A stretch of DNA of 64,000 nucleotides from an uncultured Alphaproteobacteria bacterium. Its GTDB lineage: Bacteria; Pseudomonadota; Alphaproteobacteria; UBA11222. The notes below the pieces were generated by a model that was not told where the DNA came from, did no database searches, and was given only the letters and a program-made list of their open reading frames with translations. The position numbers and the translations under genes are program-made. Positions 50,922 through 63,697 of the stretch are shown here, piece after piece (the stretch's first letter is position 1; every line of letters starts with the position of its first letter). The stretch lies in contig CALAQW010000065.1 of the NCBI GenBank assembly GCA_937888955.1, positions 12,902-76,901 on the forward strand. Reading direction: 5' to 3'.

Positions 50922-51683
50922 TCAGTTCCCCTCTACCGGTTCGGCCCCGACATCGCGGATCATCTGCCGCACACCATCCACAGCCTCGCCGAGCTGTTTG
51001 GCATCGGTTGAACGCATGACGAAGTTCACGCCATAGCCATTGTCCCGATAATAGGGGTAGCTGCCAAAGGACACATCGGGAAATTCCACGTGCAATGCGC
51101 CCAACGCCTCGGCAACCTGCCCTTCGGCAACCGCGCCGCCGACCGCTTTGCTCAAAACCCGTGCGCCCCCCACCAGCCGGTGGCGAATACTTTCAAGCAT
51201 CGCATGCATGACAACCGGGATACCGGCCATCACAAACACATTGCCGATCTTAAAGCCCGGCGCCTTGCTGATCGGGTTTTCGATCAAATCCGCACCATCG
51301 GGGATTCGCGCCATGCGTTTGCGCGCCGCGGTAAATTCGCCGGGCGCGTAATGCGCCCCGAGAATTTCCATTGCCTGCGGGTGATAGTCGATGCCGACAC
51401 CGAAAGCGGTCGCCACCGCATCGGCGGTGATATCATCATGGGTGGGGCCGATGCCGCCGGTTGTGAACACATAATCATAGCGCGCCCGCAGCGCGTTGAG
51501 TGCCGCGACAATCTCATCCTGAATGTCGGGCACAACCCGGATCTCGCGCAGCTGAACCCCCACCTCGCCTAACCATTTGGCAATATAGGAAGAGTTTGTA
51601 TCCTGCGTCCGGCCGGAAAGAATCTCATCACCGATCACAAGCACCGCCGCTGTGACAAAAGCCGCCTTTACTGTCTCTGACAT
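50922..51683 (-). CDS. CinA-like molybdopterin-binding (MoCF-biosynthesis) domain protein
   Basis: The ATG at 51683 gives ...TAAVLVIGDEILSGRTQDTNSSYIAKWL...VFTTGGIGPTHDDIT, which matches the CinA N-terminal domain pattern. Confidence 0.8.
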   Translation of the reverse strand: MSETVKAAFVTAAVLVIGDEILSGRTQDTNSSYIAKWLGEVGVQLREIRVVPDIQDEIVAALNALRARYDYVFTTGGIGPTHDDITADAVATAFGVGIDYHPQAMEILGAHYAPGEFTAARKRMARIPDGADLIENPISKAPGFKIGNVFVMAGIPVVMHAMLESIRHRLVGGARVLSKAVGGAVAEGQVAEALGALHVEFPDVSFGSYPYYRDNGYGVNFVMRSTDAKQLGEAVDGVRQMIRDVGAEPVEGN

Positions 51684-51807
51684 AGTCGTTCTGATATTTC
51701 CGATAGGCCAAGCCCTGATCATAGACCTGTGTGCCCGCCCGTTAAAGCATGAAGCAATAATCAAAGCGGCATTTGCCGCCTCGTTACCACGGCGTTATGG
51801 TCGCGCG

Positions 51808-52536
51808 ATGAAATTTGCAACACCGCTGATCCGCGCGACCCTGAACAAACGCTATAAACGCTTTCTTGCCGACGTCACCTGTGATGACGGCACCGAGCTT
51901 ACCGTGCATTGCGCCAACCCCGGCTCCATGATGGGGCTGACGGAAGCCGGTTCGGACGTCTGGCTGTCGGACAGCAACAATCCCAAGCGGAAGCTGCGCT
52001 ATTCCTGGGAACTGATCGCGGTTGGCGACGCGCTTGTGGGGATCAACACCGCACATCCCAATCGTATCGTAGAAGATGCGGTTGCCGCCGGTCAGGTGCC
52101 CGAATTGCGCGGCTATGGCACGCTGCGCCGCGAGGTAAAATACGGCAAGAACAGCCGTATCGATCTGCTGCTGCAGGACGATGACAAAAGCGACTGCTAT
52201 GTCGAAGTGAAGAATGTCACCCTGATGCGGCAAGCGGGGCTGGCCGAATTTCCCGACGCCAAGACCGCACGCGGCACGAAACATCTGGAGGAGCTGGCAT
52301 TGATGGCCGAGGCCGGGCACCGCGCCGTCATGTTCTATCTGGTGCAACGCACCGATTGCAGCAGCTGCACGGTTGCCGCCGATATCGACCCGGCTTATGC
52401 CGCCGCGCTGGCCGATGCGCAGGCGCGCGGGGTCGAAACGCTATGTTATGACTGCACGATCTCGCCCGAAGCAATCCGGCTGAATGCGGCACTGCCCTTC
52501 CACATCGCACCTGAGACGGGGTTGAGGACGGGCTGA
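51808..52536 (+). CDS. sfsA: sugar fermentation stimulation protein A (SfsA nuclease family)
   Basis: The ATG at 51808 gives MKFATPLIRATLNKRYKRFLADV... plus YVEVKNVTL and KGTKHLEEL motifs. Confidence 0.9.
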   Translation: MKFATPLIRATLNKRYKRFLADVTCDDGTELTVHCANPGSMMGLTEAGSDVWLSDSNNPKRKLRYSWELIAVGDALVGINTAHPNRIVEDAVAAGQVPELRGYGTLRREVKYGKNSRIDLLLQDDDKSDCYVEVKNVTLMRQAGLAEFPDAKTARGTKHLEELALMAEAGHRAVMFYLVQRTDCSSCTVAADIDPAYAAALADAQARGVETLCYDCTISPEAIRLNAALPFHIAPETGLRTG

Positions 52537-52686
52537 TCCCGCGATTGGGCGGCAAGAGTTCACGAGTTTCACCAATTGTAGTAAGAATCGCTATAAGGGT
52601 ATCGCATCACTGCCTGCCCGATCATGGTGGAACCGGGCTGTAACGCGTAGCGAAAAAGATGCGCCCAGTAGTTTGCGGAAAGAACA

Positions 52687-53508
52687 ATGAATTACATTGA
52701 TGCGCGCGAAGCACCCCTGCGCAATAACGGGCTGATCAAACTACACGGTGCGGAAGCCTTTGCCGGCATGCGCGCCGCGGGACGGCTTGCGGCCGAAACC
52801 CTCGATATGATCGGGGAACATGTGGCGCCCGGCATTACAACGGCCGAACTTGACCGGCTGTGCAACGAATTCATCGTGGCGCGCGGCGGCGTTTCCGCGC
52901 CGCTCAACTATCGCGGCTATCCCAAGACGAGCTGCATCTCGCTCAACCATGTCGTCTGCCACGGCATTCCCGGCGACCGGGTACTGCGCGAGGGGGATAT
53001 ACTGAATATCGACGTGACGCCCCTGCTGGATGGCTGGCATGGCGATTCAAGCCGGATGTATGTCGCCGGCAAGCCAAGCGTCAAGGCGAAGCGGCTGATC
53101 GAGGTGACCTATGAATGTCTGATGCGTGGTGTGGCGGCGGCAAAACCGGGGGCCACCACCGGCGATATCGGCCACGCGATCCAGGAATATGCGGAATCGA
53201 ATCGTTGCTCCGTGGTGCGGGATTTTTGCGGTCACGGACTAGGGCAGGTATTTCACGACGCGCCCAATATCATGCATTACGGCAATCCCGGCGAAGGGCT
53301 GGTGCTCAAGCCGGGCATGATCTTCACGATTGAACCGATGATCAATCTGGGCAAATGGCAGGTCAAGATTCTGGGTGACGGCTGGACCGCTGTCACCCGG
53401 GACAAATCGCTGTCGGCGCAGTTCGAGCATTCCATCGGCATCACCGACACCGGCAACGAGATTTTCACAACCTCCCCGGCAGGGCTGCATCATCCATTTA
53501 TCGACTGA
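52687..53508 (+). CDS. map: type I methionine aminopeptidase
   Basis: Metal-ligand context: VVCHGIP, DILNIDVT...DGWHGDSS, FCGHGLG, FTIEPM and QFEHSI. Confidence 0.95.
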   Translation: MNYIDAREAPLRNNGLIKLHGAEAFAGMRAAGRLAAETLDMIGEHVAPGITTAELDRLCNEFIVARGGVSAPLNYRGYPKTSCISLNHVVCHGIPGDRVLREGDILNIDVTPLLDGWHGDSSRMYVAGKPSVKAKRLIEVTYECLMRGVAAAKPGATTGDIGHAIQEYAESNRCSVVRDFCGHGLGQVFHDAPNIMHYGNPGEGLVLKPGMIFTIEPMINLGKWQVKILGDGWTAVTRDKSLSAQFEHSIGITDTGNEIFTTSPAGLHHPFID

Positions 53509-53541
53509 CATCAACTGACATAGACGGACAGATCTTTCCCT

Positions 53542-54243
53542 ATGGGGCAGGGCAAAGACAAAAACAGCGACCAGACACCGCATCACGCCGGCCATCGCGA
53601 GCGGCTGCGCGCACGTTTCATGGAAACGGGCGGGGACGGGCTTGCCGATTATGAATTGCTGGAGCTGCTGTTGTTCCGGGCGATCCCGCGACGCGATGTC
53701 AAACCGCTGGCAAAGCAGCTGATCAGCCGGTTTGGCAGCTTTGCCGATGTAATCAGCGCCGACCCGAACAGCCTGCGCCAGATGGTGAATAGCGAGAATG
53801 TCGTGCGCGAACTCAAAATCGTGCAGGCAGCGGCGTTACGGCTCAGCAAGGCTGCGGTTATCGGCAGGCCGGTCCTGTCAAGCTGGTCCGCGATGATCGA
53901 TTACTGTCACGCGGCGATGGCGTTCGAAAAGCGCGAGCAGTTCCGCATCCTGTTTCTTGATCGCAAAAACGTGCTGATCGCCGATGAGGTGCAGCAGCAG
54001 GGCACGATCGACCATGCGCCCGTCTACCCGCGCGAGGTGATCCGCCGGGGGATGGAACTGTCGGCGTCAGCACTGATTCTTGTGCATAATCACCCAAGCG
54101 GCGACCCGACCCCCTCGCGTCAGGATATAGAAATGACAAAGCAGATTGCCGCCGCCGGCCTGCCGCTTGGCATCACGCTGCACGATCATGTCATTATCGG
54201 CCGCGGCAACAGCGCAAGCTTCCGTCAGCTCGGGTTGCTGTAG
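53542..54243 (+). CDS. radC: RadC-family (JAB/MPN domain) protein
   Basis: N-terminal [13 protein letters not shown]...ELLELLL and the JAB motif [18 protein letters not shown]. Confidence 0.9.
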
Positions 54244-54388
54244 GCGACAATCGACCCTGCGTTATCACCGTGCGTTATCTTTGACAAACAACGCGCTTTC
54301 GCCTTAGTTAAATGCCGTCCCGCACGGCGCATTTCAGCTCGTGCGGACAAACCTTTCCAGCGCCACCCGAACAAGCCAGGCAGCATCA

Positions 54389-55684
54389 ATGATCCCACGC
54401 TATTCCCGCCCCGAAATGACCGCAATCTGGTCACCGGAAGCCAAATTCCGCATCTGGTTCGAGATTGAGGCGCATGCCTGCGACGCTCTGGCGGAACTGG
54501 GCGTCATTCCGAAGGAAGCGGCCAAAGCCGTGTGGGAGCGGGGCGATTTCGAGGTTGCGCGGATCGATGAAATCGAACGCGAGACCAAGCATGATGTCAT
54601 CGCCTTTCTGACCAATCTTGCCGAATATGTCGGGCCCGAGGCGCGGTTCGTGCATCAGGGGATGACTTCGTCTGACGTGCTCGACACCTGCCTTGCGGTA
54701 CAGCTTGCGCGCGCCAGCGATATCCTGCTTGATGATCTTGATCAGATTCTCGCGGTGCTCAAGCGGCGCGCCTATGAACATAAAGACGATGTCTGCGTCG
54801 GGCGCAGCCATGGCATCCATGCCGAGCCGACCACATTCGGCCTGAAACTTGCCCAGGCCTATGCCGAAATGGCGCGCAACCGCGACCGGCTGGCGACGGC
54901 ACGGGCGGAAATCGCAACCTGCGCCATTTCAGGCGCGGTGGGCACCTTCGCCAATATCCCGCCCGAGGTTGAAGCGCATGTTGCCCAGGCGATGGGACTG
55001 ACGGTCGAGCCGATCTCCACCCAGGTCATCCCGCGCGACCGGCATGCCGCCTTTTTTGCAACCCTTGCGGTAATTGCAAGCTCGGTCGAACGGATCGCGG
55101 TGGAAGTCCGCCACCTGCAGCGGACCGAAGTTCTGGAAGCGGAGGAATTTTTCTCCGAAGGGCAAAAAGGGTCATCCGCAATGCCCCACAAGCGCAACCC
55201 GATCCTGTCGGAAAACCTGACCGGGCTTGCGCGCATGGTCCGTGCCTATGCACTGCCGGCGATGGAAAATGTCGCACTCTGGCACGAGCGCGACATCTCC
55301 CATTCAAGCGTCGAACGGATGATCGGACCGGATGCGACCGTCACGCTTGACTTTGCGCTGATGCGGCTCAAGGGGTTGATCGACAATCTTGTCGTCTATC
55401 CCGAAAATATGCGCGCCAATCTCGACCGGCTCGGCGGGCTTATCCACTCGCAACGGGTGCTCTTGGCACTGACCCAGGCGGGCGTCAGCCGCGAAGATGC
55501 CTACCGGCTGGTGCAGCGCAATGCCATGAAGGTGTGGCGCGAACAGGCCGACTTCCTGACGCTGCTGCGCGCGGATAGCGAAGTCAGCGCCGCGCTCGGC
55601 GCTGAGGAGCTGGCCGAATTGTTCGATCTCGGTTACCACACCAAACATGTGAACACGCTGTTTCAACGCATTTTCGGTGAGTGA
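54389..55684 (+). CDS. purB: adenylosuccinate lyase
   Basis: The ATG at 54389 gives MIPRYSRPEMTAIWS.... Fumarate-lyase signature GSSAMPHKRNP. Confidence 0.95.
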   Translation: MIPRYSRPEMTAIWSPEAKFRIWFEIEAHACDALAELGVIPKEAAKAVWERGDFEVARIDEIERETKHDVIAFLTNLAEYVGPEARFVHQGMTSSDVLDTCLAVQLARASDILLDDLDQILAVLKRRAYEHKDDVCVGRSHGIHAEPTTFGLKLAQAYAEMARNRDRLATARAEIATCAISGAVGTFANIPPEVEAHVAQAMGLTVEPISTQVIPRDRHAAFFATLAVIASSVERIAVEVRHLQRTEVLEAEEFFSEGQKGSSAMPHKRNPILSENLTGLARMVRAYALPAMENVALWHERDISHSSVERMIGPDATVTLDFALMRLKGLIDNLVVYPENMRANLDRLGGLIHSQRVLLALTQAGVSREDAYRLVQRNAMKVWREQADFLTLLRADSEVSAALGAEELAELFDLGYHTKHVNTLFQRIFGE

Positions 55685-56844
55685 TGGACGCTTCTTTCCT
55701 CGACATCCCGCTCGACCGGCTGCGCGACAAGCGCGGCATGAAATGGTCGCGTTATGGCGACGATGTCATCGGCGCATGGGTGGCGGATATGGATTTTCCC
55801 GTCGCCCCCGCCATACAAGAAGCAATTGATGACATTCAGGCCGGTAACGAGTTCGGCTACCCCGCCGATGATGCCGGCGCTACGGTTCGCGAAGCTTTTG
55901 CCGACTGGATGAAGCGCGAACATCGCTGGCGCATCGACCCCGACGATACGCTGCTGCTTGGCGATGTATTGCAGGCCATGCATGCGGCAATCCTGCGTTT
56001 CAGCGAGCCGGGCGACGGGCTTGTCGTGCAAACGCCGATCTATCCGCCGTTCCTCGGCGCGGTAAAGGCGAATAACCGCCGGCTCGATGAAAACCCGCTG
56101 CTGCGCGACACCAATGGCTACGGCATCGATTTTGACCGGCTGCGCGCGGTTATCGACAAACGCACGAAAATGCTGCTGCTATGCAATCCGCATAATCCGA
56201 CCGGTCGCGCCTTCAGCCGCAAGGAACTCAAGAAACTGGCCGAGATTGCGTTGGAACATGATCTTATCGTGGTGTCGGACGAGATCCATATGGACCTTGT
56301 CTATCCCGATCTCAAACATATTCCCTTTGCAAGCCTCGGGCCCGAGATTGCGGCGCGCACCATCACCTTGAGTTCAGCCAGCAAGAGCTTCAACATCGCC
56401 GGGCTGCGCTGCGCGGTGGCGCACTTCGGTGCACCCGAATTGCGCCGCGCGTTTTCCAAAATCAATTTACGCCTGTTCGGCACCCCCTCTATCGTGGGAA
56501 TGGTCGCGACACAGGCGGCCTGGCGGGACGGCAAGCAATGGTTGTCGCTCGTACGCGAACAACTTGACGAAAACCGGCAGCGGGTGGAGATTTTTCTGTC
56601 TGCCAATCTGCCCGAAATCGGCTTCCATATGCCCGAGGCGACTTATCTTGCCTGGCTTGACTGCACCGCACTTGAGCTGGATGAGCGCCCGCAGGAATTC
56701 TTCCTCAAACAGGCGAAAGTCGGCCTCAATCCCGGTTCGGATTTCAGCCCGGCGAGCGACAAATTCGTCCGGCTGAATTTCGCCACCCCCCCTGCTGTGC
56801 TGAACGAGATATTGAACCGCATGTCTTACGCGGTGAAGCGTTAA
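55684..56844 (+). CDS. PLP-dependent aminotransferase class I/II, MalY/PatB-like (cystathionine beta-lyase type)
   Basis: Motifs CNPHNPTGR, VSDEIH and the PLP-lysine context SASKSFNIAG. The ATG overlaps the purB stop (TGATG). Confidence 0.85.
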   Translation: MDASFLDIPLDRLRDKRGMKWSRYGDDVIGAWVADMDFPVAPAIQEAIDDIQAGNEFGYPADDAGATVREAFADWMKREHRWRIDPDDTLLLGDVLQAMHAAILRFSEPGDGLVVQTPIYPPFLGAVKANNRRLDENPLLRDTNGYGIDFDRLRAVIDKRTKMLLLCNPHNPTGRAFSRKELKKLAEIALEHDLIVVSDEIHMDLVYPDLKHIPFASLGPEIAARTITLSSASKSFNIAGLRCAVAHFGAPELRRAFSKINLRLFGTPSIVGMVATQAAWRDGKQWLSLVREQLDENRQRVEIFLSANLPEIGFHMPEATYLAWLDCTALELDERPQEFFLKQAKVGLNPGSDFSPASDKFVRLNFATPPAVLNEILNRMSYAVKR

Positions 56845-57967: not shown

Positions 57968-58480
57968 ATGCTTTTCGACAGACGCGCTGTCATGGCTGCT
58001 ATCTTCCTGCTCGCAACAGCAGGCCCCGCAGCAGCCAAGCCGGTTGACGATATCGCCGATACTGTGTCGCCGTTACTGTCGGCCACGCAAAACACTGTCT
58101 TCACGACACAGGAAAAGCGGATTATCTGCGCGTTTTTTGATACGCCAGCGTGTCAGCGCATTCTTGGTGCGATTGAAAATGCGCCATCGGCGGATGGTGG
58201 AAACAAAGCAAAATCAGGGAAACACAAGGATGCATTGCTACCACCCGGACTTGCCAAACGCGACACACTGCCGCCCGGACTGGCGCAACAGTTGCAACGA
58301 AATGGCAAGCTGCCGCCCGGTCTTGAAAAACGCGGATTGCCCGATGAACTCACGCGGGCCTTGCCGGCGCGGCAAAGCGATCTGGAGCGGGTCATCGTGG
58401 GTAACGATGTCGTCCTGATCCGGCGCGGGACCGAGCTTATCCTCGATATTCTTGAAGATGTGGTGGGCGCTTCCCGGTAA
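57968..58480 (+). CDS. secreted protein with LPPGL repeats
   Basis: Signal peptide (AAIFLLATAGPAAA). Three LPPGL units, each followed by a basic or polar segment (LLPPGLAKR, TLPPGLAQQ, KLPPGLEKR). No family assigned with confidence. Confidence 0.55.
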   Translation: MLFDRRAVMAAIFLLATAGPAAAKPVDDIADTVSPLLSATQNTVFTTQEKRIICAFFDTPACQRILGAIENAPSADGGNKAKSGKHKDALLPPGLAKRDTLPPGLAQQLQRNGKLPPGLEKRGLPDELTRALPARQSDLERVIVGNDVVLIRRGTELILDILEDVVGASR

Positions 58481-58491
58481 GCGCGCAGCCC

Positions 58492-60468
58492 CTAAAACCC
58501 GAACATATGATCGAGACAAAAACCCTGTTCGCCCTGTTGCAGCCCGTGGAATCCGAACAGGCGGCATGTCGTGTCGCGTATGATGACATAGGCGTCAGCA
58601 CCCGCTGCCGCCCGTTGCCGCTGACTGAACAGCTCGCTGAACCGCCAGAAACGGCTGCCGCCGCAGGCGATCTGCAAATGCTGCTCGGCAACCACCTTGC
58701 CATTGCCGTCATGCAGGATAAGTCGTGTGTCCGATTCCGGATGCCAGGGCATGGAAGCGGGATAAATAAGATGGCATAGCCCGTCTGTTCCGGGCCCGAA
58801 ATTCTGTCCCACCCGCAGGAACAGCCGGGTCGTCAGGCCAGGTGGCGAACCGGTATAGGATTGCGGCTCATCCTTGTAGATGATCGGCGTATTGTAGATA
58901 TGCGCACCAAAGATCGTTTCGGCCATATGGCCGCTTGCGCGCTGGGTATACTGGCCAAGCGCGTGCAGCCAGCCATCCGCTTCCCCGCCATCGCGAAAAT
59001 CATAGACAAGTTCGACATGCCCGGCACCCGATGGCAAGGCCGCGCCGGCCTCCGCCAGCCAATCGTCAAGGGCAAGCGGTATGCTGTCGCGCCGCTGCAA
59101 CCGGCCCATAAAATGGCGCGCGATACATTCCCCGTTCATATCGTAAAGGTCGGCCCGCACCGGCAGTTCCATTTGCCCCGTCGCCATCGGCGTCGGCAAA
59201 ATGGTCGAGCTGAATTCGTCAACCGGCAGCACCGGCAAGGGCATGATATAGCCCTTGCCCATCACCTCGGACAGCGCGGCTATCTCCGGGTTCGGTTGCA
59301 GATCGGTGCGTTCCACATTGGCGTGCGCGATGCGGCGGCGACCGTCCTTGCGCACGATCTCATAACGCGGCCGCACGAAATAGCGCCCGGCATGAATCTC
59401 GATCTGATCGGGCCATTTCGCATCCGGCAGCAAATCAGCAATATCAAGCGAATAGGTCGCAAAGGGCGCAATGTCGCGCTCAAGTAAACTCACCTGCTGC
59501 CCGCCCATGATGCCCAGTCCCACAGACCCTGACGGGATCGGGACCGGATGACTGTTCTGGATATGCAGGATCAACCGCTCATCGGCGGCAGGCGCGGGCA
59601 TGCCCGCGAAATAATCCGCCGGCCAGGCATTGGCGTCATGGGTGCCGGAAAGGGCGCCCCCGGCATCGCCATAAATATCGAGCGCATATTTGACAATATC
59701 GTGTCCCGCCACCCGCAGCGCATGGATGAATAGCGACCCGCAAAAATCGCCAAGTCCGAAACGCGCGCGCACTTGCTGGCTATCGATGGTAATCAACCCG
59801 CCGGCCACGGGCAAAGCCTGCCGCCATTCGGCAAGCACCGCACCATCCGCATCGAACAGACAAAGCCACAGCTCGGGATCCTCGGCCCCATGCATCGACC
59901 AGTAATTTGCTGTCGTGATCCGGGTGTGCAAACCTGCCGTATCGCCGTTTGGCGCCACATCACGCAGCAGGGCAAAATTCGTCGCGAAATTAAGCGGATC
60001 GATATAATCATCCGCATTCGTCAGCATGTCCTCATCAAGCCGCATCCCGTCGAGGGAAAACACCTGCATCCCGTCGGGCAGCAGGGGGCGCAACTGCGTC
60101 ATCAGTCGCGCACTATCGAAGGTGAGGACAAGCAAACTCTTCGCATGCGAATTTTTCAGTTCACTGACAAGTTTTGCCCGATGGCCGAGCAGTTCGCGCC
60201 CGCGATCCTCGACCCGCTGCACGAACAGCTCCGCGATCTCGCATTTGTCGGAAAGCTGAAACAGCGCGTCAAACGCCTCAGCGGTATCCCGTGGATCGTA
60301 AACGGCCACCGGCCCCGCCGCCGCGCAATCGGCGACAAGCCGGGCACCACGGCGCGCCGCCAGCGGGTGGCCAAGCGCCTTGAACAAGGCATGCCCGCCA
60401 GCATTGTTTCCCGGACGCCAGCCGCGCCGAAGATCGCTGTTTGAAAATGTCTCGATACGAAGCGCCAT
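58492..60468 (-). CDS. uncharacterised 658-aa cytoplasmic protein with internal repeats
   Basis: Long ORF with no signal peptide or TM segment. The start lies 8 nt after the stop of the dioxygenase gene. The motif L-[FYH]-D-x-[DN]-G-x-x-[LIV]-A recurs at aa 204, 441 and 585. No known family recognised. Confidence 0.7.
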   Translation of the reverse strand: MALRIETFSNSDLRRGWRPGNNAGGHALFKALGHPLAARRGARLVADCAAAGPVAVYDPRDTAEAFDALFQLSDKCEIAELFVQRVEDRGRELLGHRAKLVSELKNSHAKSLLVLTFDSARLMTQLRPLLPDGMQVFSLDGMRLDEDMLTNADDYIDPLNFATNFALLRDVAPNGDTAGLHTRITTANYWSMHGAEDPELWLCLFDADGAVLAEWRQALPVAGGLITIDSQQVRARFGLGDFCGSLFIHALRVAGHDIVKYALDIYGDAGGALSGTHDANAWPADYFAGMPAPAADERLILHIQNSHPVPIPSGSVGLGIMGGQQVSLLERDIAPFATYSLDIADLLPDAKWPDQIEIHAGRYFVRPRYEIVRKDGRRRIAHANVERTDLQPNPEIAALSEVMGKGYIMPLPVLPVDEFSSTILPTPMATGQMELPVRADLYDMNGECIARHFMGRLQRRDSIPLALDDWLAEAGAALPSGAGHVELVYDFRDGGEADGWLHALGQYTQRASGHMAETIFGAHIYNTPIIYKDEPQSYTGSPPGLTTRLFLRVGQNFGPGTDGLCHLIYPASMPWHPESDTRLILHDGNGKVVAEQHLQIACGGSRFWRFSELFSQRQRAAAGADAYVIIRDTTCRLFGFHGLQQGEQGFCLDHMFGF

Positions 60469-60476
60469 GCCACCTC

Positions 60477-61115
60477 TTAAGAAAACGGATTGAGCCGTTT
60501 CGCCATTGCCGACACACGGTGCCGTCTTTGTTCGCGCCGGACGACCCCGTCGCTTATAACCCAGTTCATCTGGATCGCGCGGCGCTGCCCCTCGAACGGT
60601 TCATGGCCATGCCAACTGTGGTCACAGCGACGGAAGGCAAGCAGGGTGCCTCCATGGGGCGGCACCTCGGCCACGTAATCCTCAAGATTATCGGCACTGC
60701 GCAACAACCGTAACCGGCCGCTCGAATCCTGCCATTCATCATTCAGATATAACAGCACAGTGATAATCTTGCTGTCGGTGTCGGGATGGATTTTGCCATC
60801 GCCCAGCCGACAATAGCCGCGCACCGTGAACATGGTTGGATAGGAAGACAGATCGATTGCGAATTTTTCCGCCATGGCAGCGGCGAATTCCGGCCCGTCA
60901 AGCGCGGCAAGCAGGTCGGCAAATGCCCCGCCAACTGTCAATTCCGATGGCGGATAGGAACCCGCGCCCGGCACCTGCGGATAGTCGCGATTGACAGCTG
61001 CAAGCGCCGCACCGCTTACGAAATTCGGCACGACGATATAATCGAACGGATCGGTATTGAGCGGGCTTTGCCGCAATGCCTGCAAATCCAAAAGCTCTGT
61101 AGTGGTATCAACCAT
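60477..61115 (-). CDS. 2OG-Fe(II) dioxygenase (prolyl-4-hydroxylase-like fold)
   Basis: Facial triad candidates H-P-D (KIHPDTDSK) and a distal His (CDHSWHGHEPF), with a basic residue downstream (RRAIQMNW). The ATG at 61115 overlaps the upstream gene by 8 nt. Confidence 0.75.
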   Translation of the reverse strand: MVDTTTELLDLQALRQSPLNTDPFDYIVVPNFVSGAALAAVNRDYPQVPGAGSYPPSELTVGGAFADLLAALDGPEFAAAMAEKFAIDLSSYPTMFTVRGYCRLGDGKIHPDTDSKIITVLLYLNDEWQDSSGRLRLLRSADNLEDYVAEVPPHGGTLLAFRRCDHSWHGHEPFEGQRRAIQMNWVISDGVVRREQRRHRVSAMAKRLNPFS

Positions 61116-62148
61116 CGATCGCCTGTCCTTTGCCGCGGGCCGCAAGCAGTCGCTGCACCGCTGCCGCAACCATTCCGGTATCATCAATATCGGGCAGGGT
61201 CCATGATTCAAGCTGCCGCACCTTTCCGGGCACGAATTTACGGACCGCTTGGCAGGCCAGCATGGCTGCATGGAACCTGTCGAACTTCGCCGACCCGCCA
61301 GGCAAGTCATAAACATAGACCGGCTTAGCCGCAGCGCAGGCCTCTGTCACCATATTCACCGAGTCGCCGGTCACGATGATGGCGTCAGCCAGCCCCAGAT
61401 AGCCGAAATAAGGATTTTCCCCCTCCCCCTGCCCGTCCCACAGATGATGAGGCACCGCAGCAAGTCCGCGCCGCAGGGCGGCGATATTCTCATCCCCCGT
61501 CCGGCGCGAGGCGGTGACGGCAAAGCCCGCGCCGCTTGTCGCCGCAAGTTCGCGCAGCCCCGCACAAAGCCGTTCGATGACCTCGGGCGTCATACGATAG
61601 GCGCTGTTGGGGCCACCGATCAGGACCGTCACCAGCGGGCGCGGCAAATCCGCAAGCTGTGCCGCAAAATCAACCGCCGCCGCATCAAGCCTGGCCCGCG
61701 TCACCCGATGCAGTGACCCGCGTGTCGTCAACACATTGGGGCCGGTCAGTTGATCGTGAGCGGGCACCACCACAAGATCGAAGGCGGAAACCGGAAAACG
61801 CGGGTTCTGAATCTGCACGGTAAGGGTCGGGGGAGTGCGCAGCCGTACGCTTTGCCGCCGGATCGCAACACTCACCCCCACTGTGCGACGCCCCGTCGCA
61901 ATCAGCAGATCGGGCCAGGGCGGGACAAGTCCTGCCGCCTGCCTGTCGCCAATACCCGCAAGCGGGGCCGCAAAACGCCGCGCCCCAATCGCGGGCGGCA
62001 GCCAGCCCCATGGCGCACGCAGGGCAATCCGCTTGATATCAGGCACAAGCCCAAGTCGCTCGGCAAGGCCAAGGCATTGATTTTCCATACCCGCGGCGCC
62101 ATCGCTCAAGATCCAGCAAGTGGGCGAAATTCTGGAATCAGACATCAA
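61108..62148 (-). CDS. ELM1/GtrOC1-family (DUF1022) putative GT-B glycosyltransferase
   Basis: N-terminus CWILSDGAAGMENQCLGLAERLGL is typical of the bacterial ELM1-like family. GT-B-like C-terminal half (IVTGDSVNMVTEA). Confidence 0.7.
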   Translation of the reverse strand: MMSDSRISPTCWILSDGAAGMENQCLGLAERLGLVPDIKRIALRAPWGWLPPAIGARRFAAPLAGIGDRQAAGLVPPWPDLLIATGRRTVGVSVAIRRQSVRLRTPPTLTVQIQNPRFPVSAFDLVVVPAHDQLTGPNVLTTRGSLHRVTRARLDAAAVDFAAQLADLPRPLVTVLIGGPNSAYRMTPEVIERLCAGLRELAATSGAGFAVTASRRTGDENIAALRRGLAAVPHHLWDGQGEGENPYFGYLGLADAIIVTGDSVNMVTEACAAAKPVYVYDLPGGSAKFDRFHAAMLACQAVRKFVPGKVRQLESWTLPDIDDTGMVAAAVQRLLAARGKGQAIDG

Positions 62149-62377
62149 ACAGGCTTACCAAAGCGCATCGATCGGGTTATATACTTGCGCAATCATGTAA
62201 TTTTATTACTTGCCAGCGGCAATTCAACCGCCGGAACCTAGCATGATGTCAGGACCGACCCATCCTGCCAACATAATGAGAAACAAGGCGTATCGACCGA
62301 ATAAACCCGTTCCGCCGCTATTCATAACACGCATCCCGACAGGGCGCTAATCGATCAGGAAGATACGGAATCAGGAC

Positions 62378-62890
62378 ATGCAACGGGTAAAACTCGACGA
62401 AATCGACCAGCTTATCCTCCGCGAATTACTGGCCGACGGCCGGATGACGAATGTGGAGCTCGCGCGCCGGGTCGGCATTTCCGCGCCCCCCTGTCTGCGG
62501 CGGGTGCGGGCGCTGGAAGAAGCTGGCTTCATCACCGGTTATCATGCGGAAGTGAACACAAAACTGCTTGGCTATCAGGTGACGGTCTTTGCCATGGTGT
62601 CGCTGCGCAGTCAGGCCGAATCGGATCTCATCAATTTCGAACGGCGGGTCGCGCAATGGCCGATCGTGCGCGAATGCCACATGCTGAACGGGGAAATCGA
62701 TTTCATCCTGAAATGCGTGGCACGCGACCTGTCGGAATTTCAGTCTTTCCTGACCGAACATCTGACCGCAGCGCCAAATGTTGCAAGCGTCAAGACATCG
62801 CTCACTATTCGCACCTCCAAATCGCGCCCCGGTGTGGAAATTGCGGTGGATGATGACGGCAACGAGGATATATCACCCGCAACCGCCTGA
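62378..62890 (+). CDS. Lrp/AsnC-family transcriptional regulator
   Basis: HTH region LDEIDQLILRELLADGRMTNVELARRVGISAPPCLRRVRALEEAGFI followed by an RAM/ASNC domain. Confidence 0.9.
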   Translation: MQRVKLDEIDQLILRELLADGRMTNVELARRVGISAPPCLRRVRALEEAGFITGYHAEVNTKLLGYQVTVFAMVSLRSQAESDLINFERRVAQWPIVRECHMLNGEIDFILKCVARDLSEFQSFLTEHLTAAPNVASVKTSLTIRTSKSRPGVEIAVDDDGNEDISPATA

Positions 62891-62914: not shown

Positions 62915-63532
62915 TCAGGACAGGGCTGCGCGACTATGGGAGAAATCAACATAAGCGCGCCTATCCTGCTGCGGCCAGATGTAAGGCTGCGCTAAACAGA
63001 ACCGCGCAACCTCGGTAAAGACGATCGGCTCTGCATCCGGATGTGGCACCGATTGGCGCGGTTGCGCCGCGACCAACCCGCCAAACAGCATATCCACCCG
63101 CTGCCCATCACGCGACAGAGGCAGGATCAACCGATCATAACGCAACATGATTGGTTCGATATTATCGGCCGGGCGCTGATCATGTATCCCTGTTTCAAGC
63201 GCTGTGTCATAATAGAGTTCATGGGTCGAACCGATGACAAGCTTTTGCGCCGCCGCGTCATAAAAGTCGCGCTGCACGCCAAAGGCCGCGTGAAATCCGT
63301 CTTTCGCATCAAGTGCACAGCCGGTCAGATCGCAGCCAAGCAACCGCTCGATATGCGTGCCGATCAGGCGAAGGCGGATACTGCTTTCCCCTTCGACATC
63401 GGCCAGAAACAGGAAAGGCAACAGATTGGCTATCTCGGCAGGAAAGATCTGCCCCCGCGCAGGCAGACGTTTGTCATGCATCCGCGTGTGCCAATACTGA
63501 AAAATGCTGTATAGAATCCTGTTATCACGCAA
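62915..63532 (-). CDS. PAS_5 (DUF1457-type) PAS domain protein
   Basis: YW...R...RLPARGQIFPAEIANLLPFLFLADV...LRLIGTHI is the PAS_5 pattern common in Alphaproteobacteria. The start is uncertain. TTG at 63532 has GGGAGG 8 nt upstream. The ORF-track start at 63604 (TTG) would add an AT-rich, poorly coding-like N-terminus. Confidence 0.7.
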   Translation of the reverse strand: MRDNRILYSIFQYWHTRMHDKRLPARGQIFPAEIANLLPFLFLADVEGESSIRLRLIGTHIERLLGCDLTGCALDAKDGFHAAFGVQRDFYDAAAQKLVIGSTHELYYDTALETGIHDQRPADNIEPIMLRYDRLILPLSRDGQRVDMLFGGLVAAQPRQSVPHPDAEPIVFTEVARFCLAQPYIWPQQDRRAYVDFSHSRAALS

Positions 63533-63697
63533 ATCACGCACCTCCCGATAACAGGATATAGAAATTGTGAAAAAAATTTCAAACGATAATGGAAGGAAAC
63601 ACAAAATTACCTTAATCGTTAATATTACGTATTTTAATTATTGAAAACATTTCCTTGTTTATTCAACTTTTATCTAATTCTTGCTCTATTTTGATTT

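Follow-up and report, generated by a model that had tools for sequence, protein, structure and literature searches.

The stretch of DNA analysed here (hereafter the window) comprises 64,000 nucleotides from an uncultured alphaproteobacterium of the lineage UBA11222 (assembly GCA_937888955.1, contig CALAQW010000065.1, positions 12,902 to 76,901), and it carries, on its minus strand, three tightly packed genes whose products probably tailor the inner core of lipopolysaccharide (LPS) (for details, see below). The first gene (61108..62145) encodes a 345-residue ELM1-like, putatively KdoT-like GT-B glycosyltransferase, the second (60477..61115) a 212-residue, small 2-oxoglutarate (2OG)-Fe(II) oxygenase resembling prolyl-4-hydroxylases (P4H), and the third (58492..60468) a 658-residue orphan protein, called BIG in what follows. 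The stop codon of the ELM1-like gene and the start codon of the oxygenase gene, the latter with AAGGA upstream, share an 8-nt overlap, ATGGTTGA (61108..61115, minus strand), and a Shine-Dalgarno-like GAGGTGG spans the oxygenase stop codon TAA and the ensuing 8-nt spacer (60469-60476; with the stop codon, 60469..60479, minus strand) ahead of the BIG start codon, ATG 60468. Strand, coordinates and the extents of the overlap and the gap had been given in this form by the original prediction, made from the letters of the window and its open reading frames (ORFs), and they were confirmed from the sequence. The longest ORF of the first gene (61108-62148) opens with TTG, with an ATG one codon further in, at 62145; the latter is the likelier start, because an identical 345-residue gene call is present in public metagenome-assembled genomes (MAGs). 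The oxygenase ORF reaches 61316 according to the ORF finder, and public gene calls use the 212-residue product starting at ATG 61115. Within the block no internal promoter-like or terminator-like site was seen on the minus strand. As to the reality of the genes, the first two score far above their Pfam thresholds, and homologues of each of the three number in the thousands. No segment resembling a transmembrane helix and no signal-like N-terminus was found in any of the three proteins (maximum 19-residue hydropathy 1.15-1.33), as had been predicted for the largest of them; all three are thus soluble, which fits steps taking place on the cytoplasmic side of the inner membrane.

Of the trio, the ELM1-like protein matches the Pfam family PF06258 (Mito_fiss_Elm1) with E=1e-100 and 337.2 bits (cut-off 27) over profile positions 1-302 of 304, and a GT-B fold with two Rossmann-like domains is predicted for it from Pfam clan CL0113 (PMC4172580). 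The same family includes GtrOC1 of Acinetobacter baumannii (PMC4172580), so that the ELM1/GtrOC1-like assignment made in the original prediction proved correct. Deletion of gtrOC1 in A. baumannii cuts the LPS core back to 3-deoxy-D-manno-octulosonic acid (Kdo)2 (PMC10936431), and the reconstituted protein, renamed KdoT, is a transferase that uses cytidine monophosphate (CMP)-Kdo to add Kdo-III, after which the GT4 glycosyltransferase GnaT acts (PMC12856342). Core synthesis in an A. baumannii delta-kdoT mutant is restored by a homologue from the alphaproteobacterium Rickettsia, and an SRRT motif, whose second Arg (R180 in KdoT) is required for activity, is invariant among KdoT homologues (PMC12856342). 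This motif occupies residues 213-216 of the window protein and is carried by 61 of 63 BIG-linked orthologues. Because of its membership of PF06258 and its SRRT motif, the window protein may be regarded as a KdoT-like inverting GT-B transferase.

How far does the comparison with A. baumannii carry? KdoT (GtrOC1, A1S_2903), taken together with GnaT (LpsB), shares with the window protein the PF06258 family, the SRRT donor-positioning motif and the soluble or peripheral GT-B type, and a GT4 gene follows the ELM1-BIG gene pair in some beta- and gammaproteobacterial loci, which recalls the KdoT-then-GT4 logic. By contrast, A. baumannii has neither BIG nor a described adjacent 2OG oxygenase, and the window has no neighbouring core genes. 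KdoT is a putative orthologue only, and both donor and acceptor of the window protein are predictions. KdoT/GtrOC1 of A. baumannii is the sole biochemically characterised bacterial member of PF06258 that was found in the literature; a literature search on DUF1022 returned nothing relevant. Plant ELM1, a mitochondrial fission factor, is the namesake of the family and has a homologous GT-B-like domain. Its role in plants is the recruitment of DRP3A to mitochondria (cited in PMC10936431), a role for which bacteria offer no evidence.

The second protein matches PF13640 (E=1.2e-9, 39.4 bits, cut-off 27), and a scan of the whole of Pfam-A at E<=0.1 returned PF13640 and PF13661 (P4H-like) only. Its iron triad, H110-x-D112...H169, is embedded in HPD (110-112) and HSWHGH (166-171), with R178 as the basic 2OG-binding residue, and H110, D112, H169, H171 and R178 are each at least 95% conserved among 40 orthologues; the small dioxygenase with a candidate HxD...H triad that had been read from the letters of the window is therefore correctly named. 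Its best sequence matches in the PDB are 9blq, a ‘putative hydroxylase’ (3e-12), and 9ei6, a ‘P4H alpha-subunit domain protein’ (1.8e-7), whereas no KdoO entry was among the PDB matches at E<=1. The entries 9BLQ and 9EI6/9EI7 are the nearest solved sequence relatives and have the H-x-D...SWH core in common with the window protein, but the similarity spans only ~110 residues and the entries state no function; no paper on 9BLQ or 9EI6 was found in the literature searched. Two loci hold a further, divergent paralogue that resembles 2OG oxygenases (H-T-D...TWHG) and has no Pfam match at 1e-3; in one it lies directly upstream of BIG, with the ELM1-like gene absent (L034, 5180-5848), and in the other between the ELM1-like gene and the usual oxygenase gene (L076, 1668-2324).

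The third protein, BIG, had been described as belonging to no recognisable family, and this view was borne out. The window protein has no family in Pfam or NCBIfam (best E=0.021, below cut-off) or in PADLOC, nothing usable was obtained from Pfam for any of the 36 members of the BIG alignment, and neither phmmer nor a profile search matched any PDB sequence. An exhaustive phmmer search over 1.84 billion representatives returned apparent members of the family only, none of them annotated. The family comprises 4874 clusters at 90% identity, in which every named member is ‘hypothetical’, and 594 representatives at 50% identity; it is carried by at least 589 species genomes in GTDB, spread over Alphaproteobacteria (Parvibaculales, Rhodospirillales including Azospirillum and Inquilinus, Ferrovibrio, Kiloniellales), Betaproteobacteria (Sulfuriferula, Methylophilaceae, Thiobacillus) and Gammaproteobacteria (Competibacteraceae and MAGs). 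The 36 aligned sequences, the most distant of which is 38% identical to the window protein, have 58 invariant columns, including 7 His, 4 Asp, 4 Arg and several Asn, Gln, Tyr and Trp. An AlphaFold2 model built on this alignment (pLDDT 90, pTM 0.90) consists of an alpha/beta, Rossmann-like N-terminal domain (residues ~25-145) followed by ~500 residues of beta-sandwich domains, and includes an invariant loop at residues 526-546 (KDEPQSY..PPGLTTR), the centre of which (537-539) is poorly ordered. In Foldseek searches of the whole chain (PDB, BFVD), only generic look-alikes with multiple immunoglobulin (Ig)-like or MG-like beta-sandwiches appeared (TM<=0.14). The N-terminal domain modelled by itself (pLDDT 87) gave fold-level Rossmann matches to Rex, HGPRT and amino-acid dehydrogenases (E>=2e-3, TM ~0.4), and its conserved residues sit at, or just past, the strand ends. 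Neither as a whole chain nor as an N-terminal domain does BIG have a structural homologue in the copy of the PDB that was searched, and the AlphaFold and Foldseek check proposed at the outset thus yielded a confident model that matches no characterised enzyme family. No internal repeats were detected by hhalign among four segments of the protein.

What kind of protein, then, could BIG be? Because of the dense polar invariant columns and the Rossmann-like domain, it looks like an enzyme or a ligand binder. Binding of nicotinamide adenine dinucleotide or phosphoribosyl pyrophosphate was not deduced from the matches of the N-terminal domain, these being fold-level only. Carbamoyltransferase, mutarotase, cupin and sialidase-like identities were considered and rejected, as neither Pfam nor Foldseek supports them; a reading of the locus as a defence system was likewise set aside, PADLOC having matched nothing beyond the generic 2OG domain. 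Two further observations concern the protein itself. Residues 5-22 (60403-60456) contain a conserved peptide, ETFxNxDLxxGWRPGNN, which is disordered in the model, present in one subfamily and missing from more divergent members, and which may be a partner-binding tail. In addition, a protein of 575 residues (P0093), encoded on a 2.2-kb contig, matches BIG with 97% identity along 61% of the query and yet has PF01094/PF13458 periplasmic-binding-protein domains; it is probably a chimera of assembly or gene calling.

Co-occurrence and gene order across genomes had been set beforehand as a test of the operon, and the outcome is that the genes are co-conserved. The three window proteins and the Lrp-family regulator encoded next to them were located by tblastn in 80 species loci, 74 of which were informative (at least 2.5 kb upstream of BIG). 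An ELM1-like gene lies just upstream of BIG on the same strand in 66 of the 74, and in 45 of these 66 the oxygenase gene is present as well, 37 loci having the order ELM1-oxygenase-BIG and 8, mostly betaproteobacterial, the order oxygenase-ELM1-BIG. In the remaining 21 loci the oxygenase is missing and the ELM1-like gene and BIG are usually separated by less than 100 nt; BIG has neither gene beside it in seven informative loci and the oxygenase alone in one. Intergenic distances are mostly below 100 nt, or the genes overlap, and the flanks are unrelated across Alpha-, Beta- and Gammaproteobacteria. When the neighbourhoods were clustered, no further family proved to be common to several classes; CarB, GreA, Lrp, TrxB and LysR recur solely as an alphaproteobacterial backbone.

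Loci were also gathered with the oxygenase or the ELM1-like protein as the starting point. Pseudoxanthobacter, Rhodobium and a Hyphomonadaceae MAG (L085-L087) have the ELM1-like and oxygenase genes at the corresponding site but lack BIG there, the site adjoining greA and/or lying upstream of trxB-lysR, with a divergent lrp only in Rhodobium. The ELM1-like gene stands alone opposite lrp in Sneathiella and another MAG (L088, L089), and one MAG (L090) has lrp diverging from the series ELM1-glycerate kinase-oxygenase-BIG-trxB. The ELM1-like gene is therefore the hub and the constant part of the module, while the oxygenase and BIG are independently optional in Alphaproteobacteria, because lone-ELM1, ELM1-oxygenase and ELM1-BIG loci all occur, as would be expected for decorating enzymes. 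The genes at times found inserted among the three (GNAT, OmpA-like, SDR, glycerate kinase) are not recurrent and give no clue to function. The insert of glycerate-kinase type in L090 (6037-7302) is of the DUF4147/MOFRL kind, and genes of the PAP2, MMPL and MlaA types, which relate to envelope lipids, lie upstream of lrp there. In a MAG labelled Candidatus Omnitrophota (L058, 1958-7920), the order oxygenase-ELM1-BIG follows two galactose-1-phosphate uridylyltransferase-like genes and feoA; this occurrence reflects either horizontal transfer or mis-binning.

Could the three genes simply be functionally unrelated neighbours held together by inherited synteny, with BIG and the oxygenase as passengers beside a housekeeping transferase? 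That each of them can occur without the others, and that the unrelated inserts just mentioned sometimes separate them, would be in keeping with such a view. Inherited synteny alone is nevertheless inadequate, because the adjacency survives across three classes despite wholly different flanks, because the order itself has changed (oxygenase-ELM1-BIG in Betaproteobacteria versus ELM1-oxygenase-BIG in Alphaproteobacteria), and because the genes remain mostly less than 100 nt apart or overlapping; we consider this explanation very unlikely.

The same gene patterns bear on a different arrangement, raised in the original prediction. A pathway in which a prolyl-4-hydroxylase and a glycosyltransferase act successively on Skp1 is known from Dictyostelium and Toxoplasma, and by analogy the oxygenase could hydroxylate a proline in a loop of BIG and the ELM1-like GT-B protein could glycosylate the resulting hydroxyproline, BIG being a dedicated protein acceptor in the cytoplasm. 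There is a certain likeness: a cytoplasmic P4H-like oxygenase is encoded alongside a glycosyltransferase, the oxygenase is closest to enzymes of the prolyl-4-hydroxylase type (a fragment bears the label ‘Tpa1-like proline 4-hydroxylase’ in one source), coupling among the three genes is tight, and the invariant loop of BIG offers P535, P543 and G544 in an X-Pro-Gly-like setting, its low model confidence suggesting an exposed, flexible segment. However, both enzymes occur without their putative substrate at the same syntenic site (Pseudoxanthobacter, Rhodobium and the Hyphomonadaceae MAG), the ELM1-like gene occurs alone in Sneathiella, and 21 ELM1-BIG loci have no oxygenase. Moreover, the proline loop is identical in oxygenase-positive and oxygenase-negative loci: when BIG columns were compared between the two groups, those that separated them best were ordinary substitutions, none of them in the proline loop, and they probably follow lineage. 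Whole-length conservation of BIG with many polar invariant residues also fits an enzyme better than a passive substrate. Finally, this transferase family acts on the lipid A-core, Kdo2-lipid A being its sole demonstrated acceptor (PMC12856342). Given enzymes that occur without BIG, BIG that occurs without the oxygenase and a loop that stays unchanged, BIG as a hydroxylated and glycosylated substrate is not supported, and we regard it as very improbable.

The genomic surroundings in other classes point in another direction. In Beta- and Gammaproteobacteria, the pair is found inside LPS core clusters with waaA, GT4, GT9 and O-antigen ligase genes: waaA (PF04413, E ~1e-72) precedes ELM1-BIG in L044 and BIG itself in L047, BIG is followed by GT4 and GT9 genes in L036 and L073, and in L052 and L084 by a GT4 gene, an acyltransferase or methyltransferase gene, Glyco_trans_1_2 and a Wzy_C O-antigen ligase, with a GT2 gene next in L084. 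The KdoO-type analogy to LPS-core sugar hydroxylation, which the original prediction had placed side by side with the Skp1 pathway, fits this context better, since ELM1-BIG orthologues adjoin waaA, GT4, GT9 and O-antigen ligase genes and KdoT is a Kdo transferase (PMC12856342). In the window the module has different neighbours, namely lrp, a CigR-like gene, an oxidoreductase gene and purB, and no recognised lipid A-core gene is adjacent. The lrp gene (62378..62890, plus strand; PF01037 and PF13412, Pfam E=6e-20) is divergent from the ELM1-like gene, as had been noted, and the intergenic region common to both (62146..62377) presumably holds the operon promoter; two sigma-70-like matches on its minus strand (62271-62243 and 62227-62200) are not above the expectation from shuffled sequence. 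The same divergent arrangement is found in most alphaproteobacterial loci, and lrp is absent from the beta- and gammaproteobacterial ones. In view of that absence Lrp was rejected as a component of the module, and a part as its dedicated regulator is not supported; judged by gene order (greA-lrp...trxB), it is a syntenic neighbour in Alphaproteobacteria.

It may be asked whether the product is part of LPS at all, and not of some other glycoconjugate, such as a capsule or exopolysaccharide primer, a membrane glycolipid or a soluble metabolite, with BIG as a scaffold or carbohydrate-binding partner. The inspected alphaproteobacterial loci lie among housekeeping genes (carAB-greA-lrp...trxB), specificities within PF06258 are diverse and mostly unassayed, and BIG consists largely of Ig-like or MG-like beta-sandwiches, an architecture typical of binding or scaffold proteins. 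Against this stand the waaA, GT9 heptosyltransferase-family and O-antigen ligase neighbours in Beta- and Gammaproteobacteria, which are specific to lipid A-core assembly, the SRRT motif held in common with KdoT, and the ability of the Rickettsia homologue to restore core synthesis in delta-kdoT. A target outside LPS seems, on balance, unlikely.

We lean, with moderate confidence, towards the view that all three genes belong to a single operon, the products of which build or tailor the inner-core (Kdo) region of LPS on the cytoplasmic side of the inner membrane. By analogy with KdoT/GtrOC1, the ELM1-like enzyme would use a CMP-activated donor to place Kdo, or an ulosonic acid related to it, on Kdo-lipid A, and the optional Fe(II)/2OG hydroxylase would then decorate the same glycolipid. 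KdoO, an Fe(II)/2OG hydroxylase that acts straight after Kdo transfer (PMC8533242), and the occurrence of Ko in Alphaproteobacteria (PMC8036547) make a KdoO-like hydroxylation of Kdo to Ko by a non-homologous enzyme the most economical guess for this step. KdoO, the Kdo-3-hydroxylase of Burkholderia and Yersinia, acts on the inner core and is sporadic and non-essential (PMC8533242); the window oxygenase, too, is optional and has a Kdo-transferase-like gene as its neighbour, but it has no detectable sequence relationship to KdoO, so that it would at best work like KdoO without being a member of its family. As for BIG, the many conserved polar residues, the Rossmann-like domain and the constancy with which it accompanies the transferase make it most likely a new tailoring enzyme, or a substrate-presenting adaptor, acting on or next to the sugar placed by the first enzyme, and not a substrate. 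The gene identities, their tight packing and co-conservation, the placement within LPS core clusters in other lineages and the lack of known relatives of BIG are observed facts, whereas the substrate, the order of steps and a catalytic role of BIG are what we infer from them. More tentatively still, BIG may found a new enzyme family for a so far unassigned step by which hundreds of Alpha-, Beta- and Gammaproteobacteria assemble the inner core of LPS.

Several findings weigh against the assignment to the inner core. The link to LPS consists of family homology and roughly nine beta- and gammaproteobacterial loci, and the inspected alphaproteobacterial loci have no recognised LPS core gene adjacent to the module. 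PF06258 also holds the outer-core transferases GtrOC14, 19 and 22, whose specificities are undefined, and therefore Kdo as the donor is not assured. The oxygenase showed no sign of membership of the KdoO family, as no Kdo-hydroxylase model (PF11004) appeared in its Pfam-A scan at E<=0.1, and its nearest solved relatives are the P4H-like proteins of no stated function. BIG has no adjacent ELM1-like gene in seven of the informative loci, e.g. in Ferrovibrio, and neither a catalytic motif nor a structural homologue of it came to light, its reading as an enzyme being drawn from the pattern of conservation only.

What would such a module add to the present picture of LPS biogenesis? Assembly of the inner core is regarded as largely solved in model enterics, and KdoT (2024-2025) revealed non-canonical Kdo chemistry behind genes annotated ‘mitochondrial fission ELM1’. 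The module ties this family to two more components, the oxygenase and BIG. The first two genes add members to kinds already known; what is new is the trio, with BIG in particular, as a variant of the machinery for the LPS core. Its context is conventional, and the orphan BIG family is large and strongly conserved. The original prediction could name no described system of this composition; this stands for the full trio, which was not found described in the literature, but not for a part of it, to which the KdoT/GnaT system described in 2024-2025 is a relative. The oxygenase could explain Ko-type cores in bacteria without KdoO. Should BIG prove to be an enzyme, an unassigned reaction would be indicated on the main glycolipid of the outer membrane, at its most conserved part, a region that shapes permeability, phage receptors and innate immune recognition. 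The module lends itself to testing, given a confident model of BIG, soluble proteins and cultured hosts (Azospirillum, Inquilinus, Ferrovibrio, Parvibaculum, Sulfuriferula). Examples of hosts with all three genes are Azospirillum cavernae, Inquilinus, Parvibaculum and Sulfuriferula.

The remaining observations concern the surroundings of the three genes in the window. The gene at the far end, which had been correctly seen as convergent on BIG, is CigR-like (57968..58480; NF040487, below its cut-off); its stop codon and that of BIG are 11 nt apart (57968-58492), with no terminator-like hairpin between them. Just past lrp lies a gene (62915-63604) for a PAS_5 protein that resembles the motility and cell-cycle regulator MopJ (NF051868, E=1e-13, below its cut-off). 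On the other side, a housekeeping run (50922-54243) encodes a MoCF_biosynth/FAD-synthase-like protein, SfsA, an M24 peptidase and a RadC-like JAB protein. It is followed at 54341-56844 by purB, encoding adenylosuccinate lyase (Lyase_1 and ADSL_C), which overlaps a class I/II aminotransferase gene by 4 nt (55681-55684), an overlap that suggests translational coupling of an unusual gene pair.

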